DNA from: a phage
Strand: one strand, 5' to 3'
Length of the DNA: 64,000 nucleotides
Sequence record: PZ445551.1
Shown here: one piece after another, positions 9,452 to 39,222 of the stretch
Layout of the letters: each line of letters begins with the position of its first letter
How positions within the stretch are numbered: position 1 is the first letter of the stretch
Notes under the pieces: model-generated
The model's database searches: none
Seen by the model: only the letters and a program-made list of their open reading frames with translations
Told to the model about the DNA's origin: nothing
Made by a program: the position numbers and the translations under genes

Positions 9452-10579
9452 ATGAAATACACGATTTATGGTGATATTGTAAGTGTAAATAAAGATATGG
9501 GCGTGGAATCTAACTATCTTCCACCAGGATTCTATACTGTTAGTCGTGATCCCCTTGGCAATTATTTTTTAAGCCGTGGTAATCTGACAGGTGTACCGGA
9601 TGTTTTGTATGGTGAAACAGAAAAACGAGCAAATCACGTTATCCGTACATTCCATCGCCGGAGTGCACAAGGTAAAAACACAGGCTTGCTTCTGACAGGA
9701 ACTAAGGGCAGTGGTAAAACTATGTTAGCCAAACTCATTAGTCGTGACCTTGTAGAAGAAGGTATTCCAACTATTATGGTTACTCAAGCCTATAGTGATG
9801 CTAATTTCATTGAACTTATTAGCAAGATCACCGACAAAGCAGTGATTATTTTTGACGAGTTTGATAAAGTATATGAGAAGAAACAAGATCAAGAAGCACT
9901 TCTCACTTTGTTAGATGGTACTGGCAGTGGTAATAAACTGTTTATTCTGACTAAAAACAGTGGTTTTATCTCTGAATTCTTTTTAAATCGTCCTAGTCGT
10001 GTGTTTTATAATTTTAATTATGATAAAATCTCACTAGAAACTATGATTGACTATTTAGATAAAAACCTGGATAACAAAGCACACTTTGATAATTTCCAAA
10101 GACTTTGGGATGTAAGTTTAGAGTTGTCCTTTGATGTGATCCAAGGTATAGTAGAAGAACTTAATTTCTACCCTGATTTATCCTTTAAAGAATGTATCTC
10201 TATGATGGGCGTTTCTTTAGGTGGTGGTAATAAATGGGATATCAGCAGTGTTGTTATTAATGGGAAACTTCAGAAAGTTAGCTGGGTATCTAGTTGGCAT
10301 AACTTTACACCTGCAATCTTTTTAGGTGGCTCGTGCACACTAGACGTGTACTTGTCATCTCCAAGTGATGCAGACTCTAAAGAAGCCCTTGCTAATAGCT
10401 CTTACGTGGTTTTTGATGATGAAGGAGATGCTCGAATTCCATTGAATGCGACAAAAATGAAAGCAGATCTTATTACAGGCGGTAAAATCGTTGTGTTTAG
10501 TGATGATCCAGAAGATTCTTTCCGTATTGTTCTGGAACCAACTATCACCAATGGTGCAACTTTGGCAAGTGTGTTTTAA
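9452..10579 (+). CDS. AAA+ family ATPase
   Basis: Walker A GTKGSGKT, Walker B IIFDEFDK. Confidence 0.75.
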   Translation: MKYTIYGDIVSVNKDMGVESNYLPPGFYTVSRDPLGNYFLSRGNLTGVPDVLYGETEKRANHVIRTFHRRSAQGKNTGLLLTGTKGSGKTMLAKLISRDLVEEGIPTIMVTQAYSDANFIELISKITDKAVIIFDEFDKVYEKKQDQEALLTLLDGTGSGNKLFILTKNSGFISEFFLNRPSRVFYNFNYDKISLETMIDYLDKNLDNKAHFDNFQRLWDVSLELSFDVIQGIVEELNFYPDLSFKECISMMGVSLGGGNKWDISSVVINGKLQKVSWVSSWHNFTPAIFLGGSCTLDVYLSSPSDADSKEALANSSYVVFDDEGDARIPLNATKMKADLITGGKIVVFSDDPEDSFRIVLEPTITNGATLASVF

Positions 10580-10595
10580 GTAAGCCAGCAAATAA

Positions 10596-10618
10596 AAACC
10601 CGCTCCGGCGGGTTTTCT
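10596..10618 (+). terminator. rho-independent terminator
   Basis: Hairpin ACCCGCTCCGGCGGGT followed by TTTTCTTG. Confidence 0.6.
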
Positions 10619-10653: not shown

Positions 10654-11826
10654 ATGACAGCACCAAAATCATGGGAACAATATAAAGAAGAATTAACACC
10701 CCTTGCTAAAAATCACAATATTCAAATCCTGGGTTATGTTGGTGAATGGAAAGGGAACAAGACTAAACTTAAGCTATCTTGCCCTAAACATGGAGAGTGG
10801 AACACCACGAACATTAATGATTTTAAGAAGGGACGTGGTTGTCCTATCTGTTCTGGTAAGAAGCCGTTAACATGGGAAACAGAATTGCCGATCTTGGAAG
10901 AGATAGCACAGAAGAGGGGGTATCAGGTGTTAGGGTACGTGGGAGAATGGAAAGGGAATAAAACAAAACTTGATTTGTTGTGTCATTGTGGTAATAAATG
11001 GGATACTACAAGTATTAACAATTTTAAACGTGGTAGCGGTTGTCCACAATGTAAGAGGGAGAGACAAACAATGTCCGACGATCAACATATTGCAGATTTC
11101 TTTTCTACAGGGGAATTTAAGGAAGGCACTATCTTCACCAATACAGGGAAACGTAACAAGCGTGATGCAGTATGGATGGTTGAGTGTCCTGTTTGCTCCC
11201 ATGATGAATATGTTCAAGCAGGTGTTTGTGATGGTAAATTTTACTCTGCAGGACATAACCTTAAACAAGGGTATATTCCGTGTCGTTGTGGGAACTATCA
11301 GTATACAGAAGACCAGATCACCTATAGGGTAAAAAAGGAAGTAGAAGGGAAAGGGTATGTCTGGGTAGATTGGATTACCAAACCCTCTTCTATAGGTAAG
11401 TTTAAATATCTTTGTCTTGTGCATGGTGAGCAGATAGGGAGTGCTCGTAATTTATTAAGCCTCGGTCAAGGTTGTCCACAGTGTGCTGGTCATAATCAAC
11501 AGCAATTATATATTAATATTGTTAAAGATAATGATATTATAGTTGCCCTTAAGTTTGGTATATCTAAAGATAGCGATAGACGATTAAACGGTCAAAATAG
11601 CCGTAATCTGTTTTTTATGGAGCGTATTTGTTTATATGATTTTAGCACAGTGAAACAATGTAGGGCTGCTGAAAGAGCTATAAAGAAAAAATTAAAAACT
11701 GGTATTTTAACGGCAAGAGAGTTGAAAGATGGTTATACAGAAACAGTAAGTGTTTCTGATTTGGAAAATCTTCAAAAAATTATTACACAATATGGTGGCA
11801 AATTAGTATACAGTAAGGAGATGTAA
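10654..11826 (+). CDS. zinc-ribbon repeat protein with C-terminal T5orf172/GIY-YIG-like domain (putative nuclease)
   Basis: Four repeats of a CxxC/H..GCPxC unit (e.g. GCPICSGKK, GCPQCKRER, GCPQCAGHN); C-terminus LYINIVKDNDIIVALKFGISKDSDRRL resembles T5orf172 as recalled. Confidence 0.55.
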   Translation: MTAPKSWEQYKEELTPLAKNHNIQILGYVGEWKGNKTKLKLSCPKHGEWNTTNINDFKKGRGCPICSGKKPLTWETELPILEEIAQKRGYQVLGYVGEWKGNKTKLDLLCHCGNKWDTTSINNFKRGSGCPQCKRERQTMSDDQHIADFFSTGEFKEGTIFTNTGKRNKRDAVWMVECPVCSHDEYVQAGVCDGKFYSAGHNLKQGYIPCRCGNYQYTEDQITYRVKKEVEGKGYVWVDWITKPSSIGKFKYLCLVHGEQIGSARNLLSLGQGCPQCAGHNQQQLYINIVKDNDIIVALKFGISKDSDRRLNGQNSRNLFFMERICLYDFSTVKQCRAAERAIKKKLKTGILTARELKDGYTETVSVSDLENLQKIITQYGGKLVYSKEM

Positions 11827-12378
11827 ATGCGGATTACTGATAAGTATGTGTTCTTCTTCTCGGCAAAAGATGAATTTAGCAACTGGTATCTATCATCTTT
11901 TATTGAACCTTTAGCTCCCAAGTATAATAATTCTATTACAAGTTCTGTTGAATTTACTTGTGTGGAACAATATATGATGTGGAGAAAAGCATGTTTGTTT
12001 TATGATTACAACATTGCATCTTCTATTTTAACCGGAGATCTAAGATATACAGGAGAAAAAGAACAAGCATATTATAAGCGACTAGGCAGATTAGTTAAAG
12101 ATTATGATGAAGATACCTGGACTTCTTTACGGGAGAAGATTGTCAAACGTGGTTTGTATCTTAAATACACACAAAATGAAGATCTCAAAAATAAACTTAT
12201 AGCCTACGCAGATAAGGAGTTCGTAGAGGCAAGCCCTTATGATTCTATTTATGGTATCAAAATGGGGATGTGGGATCGGGACGTGGAAAATAAGGATTGT
12301 TGGAAAGGACAAAATCTTTTAGGAAAATGGCATACAGACCTTGCTGTTTATCTAAAAGCACAATCTGATATTTCCTGA
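11827..12378 (+). CDS. NADAR (YbiA-like) domain protein
   Basis: DEFSNWYLSSF, FTCVEQYMMWRKA, and C-terminal D..WG....NLLGK match NADAR signature regions. Confidence 0.75.
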   Translation: MRITDKYVFFFSAKDEFSNWYLSSFIEPLAPKYNNSITSSVEFTCVEQYMMWRKACLFYDYNIASSILTGDLRYTGEKEQAYYKRLGRLVKDYDEDTWTSLREKIVKRGLYLKYTQNEDLKNKLIAYADKEFVEASPYDSIYGIKMGMWDRDVENKDCWKGQNLLGKWHTDLAVYLKAQSDIS

Positions 12379-12595
12379 TATTTTGAAAATTTTTATTTTT
12401 ATAAAAAGGGGTGTGGGTTTCATGTACGGAAATTCACCCTCTGCACAGTATATCCAGAGTAAGTAGTATTCTATACCCTGTTAATAAAGTATTTAATTTG
12501 TTTGTTGGACTATGGTATCTGATCTTTAAAAGGCATACTATCTCTTAACTACTACTTATAACAGAACAGTAAAATCATTTTTATAAAAAGTACAA

Positions 12596-12795
12596 AATTA
12601 TTTAAAGTTTTTACAGATTTTTGGGTACAAATTTTGAAAATGAAAAGTTCAAGTTTGGTCAAAATTATTTAAAGTTTTTGTACGTATTTCTATTCAGATT
12701 TTGAAAATGAAAACTTCAATTTTTTAAAAATTCCCCAGTTTATTTAAAGTTTTTTTGCCTTTTTCCGTAGAAAAATCAAAAATGAAAAGTTCAAT
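12596..12795. repeat. three tandem direct repeats of about 65 bp
   Basis: Each unit has TATTTAAAGTTTTT, a variable segment, then TTTTGAAAATGAAAAGTTCAA. Confidence 0.7.
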
Positions 12796-12816
12796 TTCGT
12801 GTTTTTATAGGTGTGT

Positions 12817-12930
12817 TAATGAGAATCATTTTCGTTTGTAAATGAGAATCATTATCATTTAACTATGTAAGTGATAATCATTCTCAGTAAGAGAATGAGA
12901 ATCCTTAGCAAATGAGAATTTTCTCATTTA
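12817..12930. promoter_or_regulatory. cluster of five Fur-box-like palindromic sites
   Basis: AATGAGAATCATTATCATT, GTGATAATCATTCTC, AATGAGAATTTTCTCATT and related; near-matches to GATAATGATAATCATTATC. Confidence 0.45.
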
Positions 12931-13044
12931 GAGAATAACGCGCAGGGGTGGTGTTTGTCTCGCGCTCCCGTGTCCCCTCGCCATACAATAAGAATAGCAT
13001 AACCAACAACAAAAGCAAGCGATTATTTTTATCTTTACATTTCT

Positions 13045-13458
13045 TTACAAATTTATTTTAGACGAGCTACCGGCGATCAACCTTCCAACCAGTGCCCCCT
13101 GGTATGTTAGCCCCGCCTTTACGCCGTGGGGGTGGCGCTTCCTCTTCTGTATGTAAAACAGTATAAGCCCGATCCCTGGGCTTGTCAAGATTATTTTTTG
13201 TTTTCTTGCCAGGATAGGACACCTAACCAAAAATACATGTCGCCCCGCGCCCCCTGGTGGGATCTTGCTTTCCCCGCCGCCACTGCAAGCCCATAGATAA
13301 CCATTTGCGAACGTATCAAAATGATCTATTTCTTCCACCTTATGATCGCCCAGGTTGAGAACGGTTTCAACCTTTAAGCCCGTTGCGCTTGCTACCTGGT
13401 GCACCGTGCCGCCTTGCCAGCCTAATGAGTGCATGAGGTGTGAAGTAGTATTTGTCAT
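13045..13458 (-). CDS. hypothetical protein on opposite strand in GC-rich island (137 aa)
   Basis: Only long ORF in the island; minus-strand TTGCTA-N17-TATTAT promoter-like element upstream; could be a chance ORF. Confidence 0.4.
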   Translation of the reverse strand: MTNTTSHLMHSLGWQGGTVHQVASATGLKVETVLNLGDHKVEEIDHFDTFANGYLWACSGGGESKIPPGGAGRHVFLVRCPILARKQKIILTSPGIGLILFYIQKRKRHPHGVKAGLTYQGALVGRLIAGSSSKINL

Positions 13459-13725
13459 GGTATCGCCCTTTCTTTGATGTGTGCCCTGGTTGGCGCGGTA
13501 GAAAGATAATAGCCCTTTCCTTTATAGATAGCAAGCAAAAAAGAAATGAAAAAAAGATTAAAAAAGGGGTTGACGTTCCTCACCTGGTAGCGTATTATTC
13601 ATCTTGTCGAGGGGGGCGAGGCACAACGACAATAAACAAAAGGAGGGCGCAATGTAGGACGGGCAAAGGTGAGGATCTCCACAATCCACCGTCACAATAA
13701 CATTACTTATAAAAGGTTGATAACG

Positions 13726-13821
13726 ATGATCAAGAAAGAAAACAGCTTGACGGTTGGAACGATTAACGCTATCATTTTCGCCGTTCCATTTTGGGTTGTA
13801 GTAGCGGTTATTATCTTTTAA
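13726..13821 (+). CDS. small hydrophobic peptide (about 31 aa)
   Basis: Not in ORF track; downstream of TTGACG-N17-TATTAT promoter-like element; weak. Confidence 0.25.
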   Translation: MIKKENSLTVGTINAIIFAVPFWVVVAVIIF

Positions 13822-13829
13822 AAATATTC

Positions 13830-13887
13830 TTGACAACGTTTTTTAATCTGATAAGATGTATCACATAGGGCGGCAATAGTGCCGCTC
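13830..13887 (+). promoter_or_regulatory. promoter + 5' stem-loop cassette
   Basis: TTGACA, 16 nt, TAAGAT; hairpin GGGCGGCAATAGTGCCGCTC begins a few nt after -10. Confidence 0.6.
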
Positions 13888-13909
13888 ATAACAGAAGAGA
13901 GAAATAATC

Positions 13910-23817: not shown

Positions 23818-23895
23818 AAATGATAATCATTCTTATTTATAGCTGATTATTTATGCAATAAACTGAATAATGCAATAATGATAATCATTCTTAAC
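23818..23895. promoter_or_regulatory. two Fur-box-like sites
   Basis: AAATGATAATCATTCTTA and AATAATGATAATCATTCTTAAC. Confidence 0.45.
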
Positions 23896-24430: not shown

Positions 24431-24757
24431 ATGTTTAGAACATTGGCTATAATATAAGCTAAGTAATAAGCTATGCAATAATAAACATGGTGAATAATGA
24501 CATTGATGATCATAATGCGCCACCTTCCAGGGGGCGCTATGTGAACACAAAGAAATCTTTCTTGTCAAGAAAAAATATTGCCATTATTGCGCAAAATTAT
24601 TTATATCTGAATAGATGATTTTTCATACTATTGCCCCATATAACATACCTCATTTGTTGAGCATAGTTATAGCCTATTTGTTGAGCCTACTTTCTTAAAA
24701 GCGCAATAAATCAGAATTATCTTGATTTTTAGTCTGTTTTATAGTATAGAAAGTATG

Positions 24758-38409: not shown

Positions 38410-39222
38410 TTACTTAGTCAAATGATCTTCTATCATTTTTATGAAAGCAGGATTGCTAAAAGCATCTGCTGCCTTTTCTCTATAAACAAAGACTCCTCTA
38501 TCTTCGTAAAGAAGAGTTTCTTCGTAATTAATTCCTGGGTTAACAACAATCATTTTTATACCCATAGTAAGTGCAGGGAATAATTCCCAATTAAAATTGA
38601 TAACTTGGTTTGAACATCCTACTACAACAACCAAATCTTGCATGGTCAAAGTATCAAACAAGTGAGCCATATCTGCATACAAAGGTGCAGCCTCACCAAA
38701 AAATACAACATTAGGCTTCACCCAGTTATAATCATCTATGTTTATACTATTGTAACCAATGTCTACCAGTGTTTTGTAATCTCCAGGGTGCATACGGTAA
38801 ACTACTTCAGGAAGATACCCGTGCACGTGAATAACAGAATCCCTGTCCACACCTGCTCGCTCTAGTAGATCATCAACGTTTGTTGTCAAGTTTACTACTT
38901 GGTTAGGATATTCCTTAAACCACTTTGCTATTTGAATATGTGCAGCATTAGGTTGTACATCTTTAAGCTCAACACGTCTTTTGTTATAAAATTCGTGTGT
39001 TTTGGCATACAAGTCCATACCGTTCTCGTCTACACCACCGACCACTGGAAGATCTGGAGATGTTCTCACACGATAACCTGCTTGGAAAGCTCCAATATCG
39101 CAGACCTCTTCTAAATCATATTCTTCCCACAAGGCACGACCACTATCTGTGTCTGTTCGGAATGTTCGAATCCCACTGTCTGCACTTAAACCTGCGCCAC
39201 TAACAAAAATTACTCTTCGCAT
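38410..39222 (-). CDS. Sir2-family NAD-dependent deacylase or ADP-ribosyltransferase-like protein
   Basis: GAGLSADSGIRTFR, TTNVDDLLERAG, HVHG, VVFFGE, LVVVVGCS; no CxxC zinc-binding pairs. Confidence 0.8.
   Translation of the reverse strand: MRRVIFVSGAGLSADSGIRTFRTDTDSGRALWEEYDLEEVCDIGAFQAGYRVRTSPDLPVVGGVDENGMDLYAKTHEFYNKRRVELKDVQPNAAHIQIAKWFKEYPNQVVNLTTNVDDLLERAGVDRDSVIHVHGYLPEVVYRMHPGDYKTLVDIGYNSINIDDYNWVKPNVVFFGEAAPLYADMAHLFDTLTMQDLVVVVGCSNQVINFNWELFPALTMGIKMIVVNPGINYEETLLYEDRGVFVYREKAADAFSNPAFIKMIEDHLTK

Follow-up and report, generated by a model that had tools for sequence, protein, structure and literature searches.

A NADAR-domain gene of a phi92-like phage encodes an orthologue of AdfN-Bas60, a counter-defence protein directed at DarTG1

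Introduction

Does the NADAR-domain gene at positions 11827..12378 of the phage DNA studied here (64,000 nucleotides of sequence record PZ445551.1, referred to below as the window) protect phage DNA from ADP-ribosylation, and if so, against which lesion, and alone or together with its neighbours? The toxin DarT1 attaches ADP-ribose to the N2 position of guanine (PMC11543638), and NADAR proteins acting on this lesion are found both in DarG1 and as stand-alone proteins of phages. A sequence-only reading of the locus had proposed that the gene product counters DNA ADP-ribosylation of the DarT type, and had counted the neighbouring genes for an AAA ATPase and for a nuclease-like protein as support for this role. 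We compared the protein, its predicted fold, its relatives and its genomic surroundings with NADAR proteins of published activity.

Results

The open reading frame at 11827..12378 lies on the plus strand, starts with ATG, ends with TGA and encodes a product of 183 amino acids. Its ATG follows the TAA stop codon (11824-11826) of the upstream gene with no nucleotide in between, and within the 3' end of that gene a Shine-Dalgarno motif, AAGGAG, is read in the sequence on the plus strand (11814..11819), at a distance of 8 nt from the ATG. The product matched the Pfam family NADAR (PF08719, DUF1768) with an E-value of 2.5e-36 and a score of 125.8 bits (cutoff 35.1), the match extending over residues 13-168 and model positions 9-154 of 163. 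Further matches were obtained with PHROG 1017 (3.5e-50) and with TIGR02464, the model for riboflavin biosynthesis intermediates N-glycosidase (109.8 bits; cutoff 73.7). The product is thus unambiguously a NADAR-domain protein, and the sequence-only reading had located its gene to the nucleotide. In the records of Escherichia phage VivaForever and of dozens of phi92-like phages, the gene is labelled either 'hypothetical protein' or 'YbiA-like N-glycosidase'. The protein is also matched by component C of the PADLOC candidate system PDC-M42 (1.8e-34), for which a literature search found no paper.

An AlphaFold2 model computed from an alignment of 61 homologues reached a mean pLDDT of 97.4 and a pTM of 0.91. 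Only two PDB entries matched the fold of this model significantly, namely 8bau (TM 0.77, E 7.6e-10), the ADP-ribose-bound NADAR protein of Phytophthora nicotianae (PnNADAR), and 2b3w (TM 0.69), YbiA of E. coli. Searching the PDB by sequence yielded the same ranking as searching it by fold, with PnNADAR (E 9.5e-13) ahead of YbiA (E 0.033).

In PnNADAR, ADP-ribose is contacted by E43, K50, R79, W89, R93, E125, D130 and W133 (Schuller et al., PMC11543638). Guanine de-ADP-ribosylation by the NADAR of E. coli C7 depends on the residues equivalent to K50 and E125, and the rescue of cells from DarT1 requires those equivalent to E43, K50 and E125 (PMC11543638). By alignment, the eight contacts correspond to E47, K54, R88, W98, R102, E134, D139 and Y142 of the window protein. 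Conservation of these positions is high: E47, K54, W98, E134 and D139 are invariant in 61/61 homologues, R88 is found in 59/61, and position 142, equivalent to W133 of PnNADAR, is always Trp or Tyr, with Tyr in the window protein. A profile match, a YbiA-like fold and ADP-ribose-binding residues, the features by which the NADAR superfamily is recognised, thus all occur in the window protein. The NADAR proteins of Stephanstirmvirinae differ from shorter homologues by two inserted stretches, one at residues ~28-40 and one at ~73-83.

The window matches Escherichia phage VivaForever, one of the phi92-like Justusliebigvirus phages of the Stephanstirmvirinae, at 100% identity, and the region is 95-99% identical to that of many phi92-like Justusliebigvirus phages, among them Bas60 (PaulScherrer) and Bas62 (JohannJBalmer). 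At the protein level, the product of 11827..12378 differs from its counterpart in Bas60 (QXV83846.1) at two positions (181/183 identical; N62S and A178T) and from that in Bas62 (QXV81452.1) at one (182/183 identical; D96T). None of these substitutions falls on a position contacting ADP-ribose. Genomes of the Bas60 type carry one copy of the gene, as indicated by tblastn (one place per record) and in agreement with their annotations.

The name AdfN-Bas60 was given to the NADAR protein of the BASEL phages Bas60, Bas61 and Bas62 (Johannesman et al., Nat Commun 2025, PMC11825919). This protein most probably corresponds to bas60_0111, given that a single NADAR was found in those genomes, and it shares with the window protein its length, its genus and its position behind an ATPase gene and an endonuclease-like gene. 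With one or two differences in 183 residues, none of them at a contact position, and a single NADAR per genome, the window protein is by sequence comparison an orthologue of AdfN-Bas60, as well as of phi92 gp223, and hence of an already characterised type of counter-defence protein.

What this type does in cells has been published. When AdfN-Bas60 is expressed from a plasmid in uninfected E. coli, the toxin DarT1 is neutralised, and plasmid-borne AdfN-Bas60 restores the full titre of phages RB69, T5 and Bas25 on a DarTG1 host, while it has no effect on the growth of T5 on a DarTG2 host (PMC11825919). The only protein purified and assayed in vitro in that study was AdfN-T4. An anti-ADP-ribosylation function is therefore already known, since a 2025 publication reports it for a protein that is 99% identical. 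These experiments bear out the proposal that the NADAR gene acts against DNA ADP-ribosylation by DarT-type toxins, but they narrow the term anti-DarTG in which it had been cast: the activity extends to DarTG1, which modifies guanine, and not to DarTG2, which modifies thymidine.

Next we considered to which kind of NADAR protein the window protein belongs. The DarG1 proteins of E. coli C7 and Geobacter lovleyi share its fold and hydrolyse the guanine-N2-ADP-ribose made by DarT1, in the manner of a type IV antitoxin (PMC11543638). DarG1 (BC4488 subfamily) is defined by an N-terminal extension that binds DNA (PMC11543638, PMC11825919), which the window protein lacks, its domain beginning at about residue 6-13 of 183; assignment to the DarG1-type antitoxins was therefore rejected. 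The two also differ at the second catalytic position (E125 of PnNADAR), which is Asp in DarG1 and Glu (E134) in the window protein and throughout its clade. Consistently, no DarT gene was found beside the window NADAR, whose neighbours are the ATPase gene, the CapR/T5orf172 gene and non-coding repeats, and neither the loci of 80 bacterial relatives nor the best 80 viral loci revealed a recurrent ART-like or DarT-like neighbour.

AdfN-T4 (T4 gp30.3) and the other T4-like NADAR proteins are likewise stand-alone erasers of guanine-ADPr in DNA that are encoded by phages and counter DarTG1 and not DarTG2. Membership of this type was rejected as well, as the position of E134 is occupied there, by published descriptions, by His, and the T4-type proteins form a separate clade. 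BLASTP and PSI-BLAST searches started from AdfN-T4 miss the Bas60 protein, and AdfN-T4 is unable to neutralise DarT1 alone and needs the context of infection by a T-even phage, whereas AdfN-Bas60 acts by itself (PMC11825919). In our tblastn search (E<=1e-3), no T4-like phage appeared among the 40 records listed, and the 117 matching records of Escherichia phages are approximately what phi92-like and phAPEC8-like phages alone (140 records) would lead one to expect.

The closest protein of known structure is PnNADAR, which is the best match by both sequence (~28% identity) and structure and has a Glu-type active site. All of its ADP-ribose contacts are conserved in the window protein, with W133 replaced by Y142, while the two proteins have different insertions around their YbiA-like cores. 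With YbiA of E. coli, the window protein has the core fold in common, but direct sequence similarity is weak and confined to the C-terminal part. YbiA removes guanine-ADPr in vitro but does not shield cells against DarT1 (PMC11125620). Together, these comparisons place the window protein among the stand-alone NADAR proteins of the Glu type. This membership explains why it passes the cutoff of TIGR02464, a model that evidently captures Glu-type NADAR proteins in general, and why GenBank records call it a YbiA-like N-glycosidase.

The genes that precede the NADAR gene had been recognised correctly. On the same strand, 9452..10579 encodes an AAA-type ATPase (PF00004, 1.5e-9; PHROG 2376, 6.6e-108), homologous to phi92 gp221 and annotated elsewhere as 'FtsH-like protease' or 'ATPase'. 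It is followed at 10654..11826, also on the plus strand, by a CapR-repeat and T5orf172 endonuclease-like gene, the homologue of phi92 gp222, whose product matches CapR (3.9e-43) with three zinc-ribbon stretches, PHROG 681 'endonuclease' (1.3e-86) and, weakly, T5orf172 (6.4e-4). The possibility that this gene is a homing endonuclease that arrived recently as a mobile element found no support, as it is present in 62/62 matching relatives and varies only in length. Between the stop of the ATPase gene (10579) and the start of the endonuclease-like gene (10654), a terminator scan detected a strong terminator-like hairpin on the plus strand, AAAACCCGCTCCGGCGGGTTTT at 10595..10616, with a 9-bp stem containing 5 GC pairs and followed by a T-rich tail. 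The endonuclease-like gene and the NADAR gene are probably co-transcribed. As the sequence-only reading had stated, the NADAR gene closes the block: on its 3' side lies ~1.5 kb of repeat-rich sequence holding only one small minus-strand ORF. ARAGORN found no tRNA in the whole window, this gap included, and a search of the gap for structured RNA with Rfam returned one sub-threshold match at the level of chance.

Justusliebigvirus phages share the order ATPase-nuclease-NADAR, as do those of Phapecoctavirus, where two additional small ORFs are present. Klebsiella phage 05F01, a member of the same subfamily, lacks this order, and neither Mydovirus NDO71 nor Kayvirus A5W has it. Among the 80 best viral NADAR loci in IMG/VR, homologues of the window ATPase occur in 4/80 and of the endonuclease-like protein in 5/80, and those loci belong to Stephanstirmvirinae. 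Given this restricted order, the low counts, the hairpin behind the ATPase gene and the fact that AdfN-Bas60 needs no phage partner, the neighbourhood is synteny specific to a lineage and does not count as evidence of function. The functional support that had been drawn from the block does not hold, and the correct conclusion of the sequence-only reading came from the domain.

Homologues of the window protein are widespread, with tblastn detecting them in at least 725 phage records, including many Herelleviridae of Staphylococcus, Listeria, Bacillus and Enterococcus, Klebsiella phages and jumbo phages. Within the clade, a NAMPT gene lies within 5 kb of the NADAR gene in 21/80 of the best viral loci, and within ~120 nt in 7 of those; PRPP-synthetase-like genes were found in 13/80 and NMNAT+NUDIX genes in 7/80. 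On contigs resembling jumbo phages, the NADAR gene adjoins NAD-salvage genes, and an NMNAT-like gene ends 7 nt before it. In 20/80 of the best viral loci, the adjoining gene encodes a macrodomain-like protein of ~170-190 aa. This protein had no Pfam match, but by sequence it matched the PDB macrodomains 2fg1, 2afc and 5e3b (E 1e-6 to 1e-5), and it shares 35% identity (E 2e-25) with the C-terminal domain of the macrodomain protein of Bas62 (bas62_0068), which is itself Pfam-positive. The entry 5e3b is SCO6735, a hydrolase of thymidine-ADPr in DNA (Toxins 2026 table, PMC12945103). The SCO6735-related macrodomain that adjoins NADAR in about a quarter of the viral loci might thus, judged by its sequence relationship, possibly be an eraser of thymidine-ADPr.

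The closest bacterial relatives, retrieved by a genome scan with a 12-sequence alignment, are 33-43% identical to the window protein and come from Burkholderiaceae, myxobacteria, Paenibacillus, Bacteroidota and Clostridia. Adjacent to these bacterial NADAR genes (80 loci) we found NrtR in 11, a microbial-type PARG in 8 and NAMPT in 4. The lineage of the window, Justusliebigvirus, also encodes SIR2 and macrodomain proteins, with the genes for NADAR, the macrodomain homologue and SIR2 dispersed. In this phage, no NAD-salvage or ADP-ribosyltransferase gene lies beside the NADAR gene; a trio of macrodomain, PRTase and HAD genes and the SIR2 gene are located 20-26 kb away.

Discussion

We propose, with a probability of about 0.85, that the protein encoded at 11827..12378 is a stand-alone NADAR ADP-ribosylglycohydrolase that reverses the guanine lesions made by DarT1 in phage DNA, acts without a partner, and leaves the thymidine lesions of DarT2 untouched. 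In an infected E. coli cell carrying DarTG1, DarT1 would place ADP-ribose on guanine N2 of the phage DNA, and replication would be blocked. The enzyme would bind the ADP-ribose moiety, with K54, R88, W98 and R102 holding the phosphates and E47 and E134 the distal ribose, and would cleave the bond between ribose and guanine, so that unmodified DNA is regained and the phage can replicate. It would be the lesion and not the toxin that is targeted, which would make a partner protein unnecessary, and thymidine ADP-ribosylation by DarT2 would not be reversed. For the orthologue, the phenotype in cells has been published; for the window protein, this chemistry is deduced, and DarTG1 is likewise the presumed natural target in VivaForever.

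Could the NADAR gene instead be one part of a module whose three products work together, for example by recognising ADP-ribosylated DNA, cutting it out and cleaning it? The ATPase, nuclease-like and NADAR genes follow one another on a single strand, the latter two abut, and Phapecoctavirus shares their order with Justusliebigvirus, apart from the two small ORFs. Such cooperation is nevertheless very unlikely, as the order is missing from 05F01, NDO71 and A5W, the partners recur in only a handful of the best viral loci, a terminator-like hairpin stands behind the ATPase gene, and in uninfected E. coli AdfN-Bas60 acts unaided (PMC11825919). Equally improbable is a housekeeping role as a YbiA-like N-glycosidase that destroys reactive intermediates of the riboflavin pathway. 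The TIGR02464 score well above the cutoff would fit such a role, as would the label 'putative YbiA-like N-glycosidase' in the GenBank records of Bas60 and Bas62 (BASEL annotation) and the designation 'GTP cyclohydrolase II' in some other records. Against it stand the far closer relationship to PnNADAR than to E. coli YbiA, a single-domain architecture with neither riboflavin genes (RibA/RibD) nearby nor the context of a LexA operon, and a published phylogeny that groups AdfN-Bas60 with bacterial NADAR proteins that are neither YbiA nor DarG1 (PMC11825919). Moreover, protection from DarT1 is provided by AdfN-Bas60 and not by E. coli YbiA (PMC11825919, PMC11125620), and it is not obvious how a lytic phage would benefit from such an N-glycosidase. 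A third reading, to which we likewise give very little credence, dispenses with catalysis and sees the protein as an ADP-ribose binder that blocks another defence, as was reported in 2024 for a phage NADAR-type protein that inhibits Retron-Eco1 through binding of ADP-ribose. In favour of this reading, the ADP-ribose pocket of the window protein is intact, but no catalytic residue varies within the clade, a pattern suggesting that catalysis is under selection, and AdfN-Bas60 neutralises DarT1 with no known requirement for binding the toxin.

Reversal of DarT1 lesions could also be one manifestation of a broader ADP-ribose eraser tied to NAD and ADP-ribose metabolism, a view that overlaps with the proposal of a DarT1 lesion eraser and does not exclude it. 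We consider this possible, though on balance not probable. Candidate substrates of such an enzyme are cytidine-ADPr, guanosine-ADPr in RNA, ADP-ribosylated small molecules and lesions set by other ADP-ribosyltransferase defences. The removal of cytidine-ADPr is credited only to NADAR-type and YbiA-type enzymes and not to the NADAR proteins of T4 or DarG1 (PMC12945103), and the window protein has Glu at the E125 position of PnNADAR, as do the types hydrolysing this substrate. Guanosine-ADPr in RNA is removed by all NADAR types tested (PMC11833690), which is compatible with a wider substrate range here too. The same view is favoured by the NAMPT, macrodomain-like, PRPP-synthetase-like and NMNAT+NUDIX neighbours of the viral relatives, by NrtR, PARG and NAMPT beside the bacterial ones, and by the SIR2 and macrodomain proteins of the phage lineage itself. 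On the other hand, gene neighbourhood is only circumstantial, the window NADAR adjoins no NAD-salvage or macrodomain gene, and the sole phenotype demonstrated is the one against DarTG1 (AdfN-Bas60, PMC11825919). Since the bacterial kin adjoin NrtR, PARG and NAMPT genes and the viral kin are often found in NAD-salvage clusters, DarT1 lesions may be one substrate among several, or may not be the main natural one.

A related and somewhat doubtful suggestion concerns the origin of the Glu-type clade, which might have been recruited from bacterial NADAR proteins of NAD and ADP-ribose housekeeping, linked to NrtR, PARG and NAMPT, and not from DarG1, and might form part of a toolkit of large phages that combines ADP-ribose erasers with NAD salvage. 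If this were true, the enzyme would erase cytidine-ADPr or RNA guanosine-ADPr as well and so counter ADP-ribosyltransferase defences beyond DarTG1, and the adjoining macrodomain would be the anti-DarTG2 partner of NADAR.

For the NADAR gene itself, the assignment to AdfN-Bas60 brings no new biology, but it allows the annotation as a DarTG1 counter-defence gene to be transferred with high confidence to VivaForever and to dozens of phi92-like phages that are candidates for therapeutic use. The homologues in Herelleviridae of Staphylococcus, Listeria, Enterococcus and Bacillus direct attention to hosts in which defence by DNA ADP-ribosylation has barely been studied. What is new here, on circumstantial evidence, is that in other phages NADAR is linked to genes for macrodomains and NAD salvage, and the recurrence of this link in jumbo phages suggests cassettes directed against both ADP-ribosylation and NAD depletion.

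NAD and ADP-ribose genes in NADAR-bearing phages

Gene neighbours were counted at the best 80 viral loci (IMG/VR; L096-L175) of the NADAR clade, i.e. the relatives of the NADAR encoded at 11827-12378; examples are L111:5482-6045, L132:4072-4983, L162:3698-4744 and L108:3623-4480. A NAMPT gene was located within 5 kb of the NADAR gene in 21 of these best 80 loci and a macrodomain-like protein adjoined the NADAR in 20, with a PRPP-synthetase-like gene present in 13/80 and an NMNAT+NUDIX gene in 7/80. These counts suggest that large phages carry ADP-ribose-eraser and NAD-salvage genes joined as cassettes.

Beside its NADAR, VivaForever encodes a 270-aa sirtuin (SIR2 family; 38410-39222, minus strand; PF02146, E = 1.3e-22), whose counterpart in Bas62, a phage of the same genus, is annotated as 'sirtuin family protein'. 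This protein is a further putative NAD-consuming or ADP-ribose-related enzyme of the phage. At the Bas62 locus, approximately 20 kb to the left of the NADAR gene and outside the window, three consecutive genes (bas62_0068-0070; L014:6867-9082) encode a macrodomain protein (PF01661), a ComF-like PRTase_3 protein (PF15610, E = 1.1e-41) and a HAD hydrolase. The C-terminal part of the Bas62 macrodomain protein is homologous to the NADAR-adjacent macrodomain of jumbo phages (35% identity, E = 2e-25), and on account of this homology it is a candidate thymidine-ADPr eraser and possibly an anti-DarTG2 factor.

NADAR insertions and bacterial relatives

Compared with homologues of 157-165 aa from other phages and bacteria, the NADARs of Stephanstirmvirinae contain two insertions, at residues ~28-40 and ~73-83. 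For other NADARs, it has been proposed that extensions flanking the core create a groove for binding DNA (PMC11543638). The window NADAR matched the PADLOC model PDC-M42C, which describes a NADAR belonging to a candidate defence system, with E = 1.8e-34. Its match to the NCBIfam model 'DS32_2 NADAR family anti-phage protein' was weak, at 26 bits, and the cutoff of 240 is far higher. Based on these two matches, NADARs of this type may also be part of bacterial defence systems. No paper on PDC-M42 was found in the literature.

The nearest bacterial relatives of the window NADAR share 33-43% identity with it (80 loci, L016-L095; e.g. L054:4308-5000, L050:5464-6357 and L092:3484-4971). Their flanking genes included NrtR (11/80), microbial-type PARG (8/80) and NAMPT (4/80), whereas DarT was not a recurrent neighbour at these 80 loci. 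In Burkholderia and Caballeronia the NADAR gene was situated in a prophage-like setting together with genes for a Gp3-like recombination directionality factor and SbcCD-like proteins.

Sequences flanking the NADAR gene

The nuclease-like gene directly upstream (10654-11826) encodes three CapR zinc-ribbon repeats and a weakly matching T5orf172 domain. Across close relatives its product measures 332, 390 or 467 aa, with the genes on either side unchanged, and these size differences apparently reflect gain or loss of repeats.

An AT-rich, non-coding stretch with many repeats (12379-12935) begins directly after the NADAR stop codon. It contains three direct repeats of ~70 nt (12577-12797), three exact AATGAGAATC iterons (at 12818, 12841 and 12894; 0.24 expected) and a pair of tandem sites similar to the E. 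coli Fur-box consensus. Window-wide, this consensus had five matches with at most 3 mismatches (0.10 expected), the remaining ones being located at 23874 and, on both strands, at 24757. The stretch could be an origin or a regulatory region, or could hold sites responsive to host Fur.

Beyond the repeats follows a locally GC-rich segment (12940-13900), in which searches turned up neither an Rfam family nor a tRNA; ARAGORN detected no tRNA across the whole 64-kb window. The segment includes a small ORF on the minus strand (13192-13458), homologous to bas62_0108 of Bas62, and each of its strands contributes to a set of several strong matches to sigma70-like promoters.
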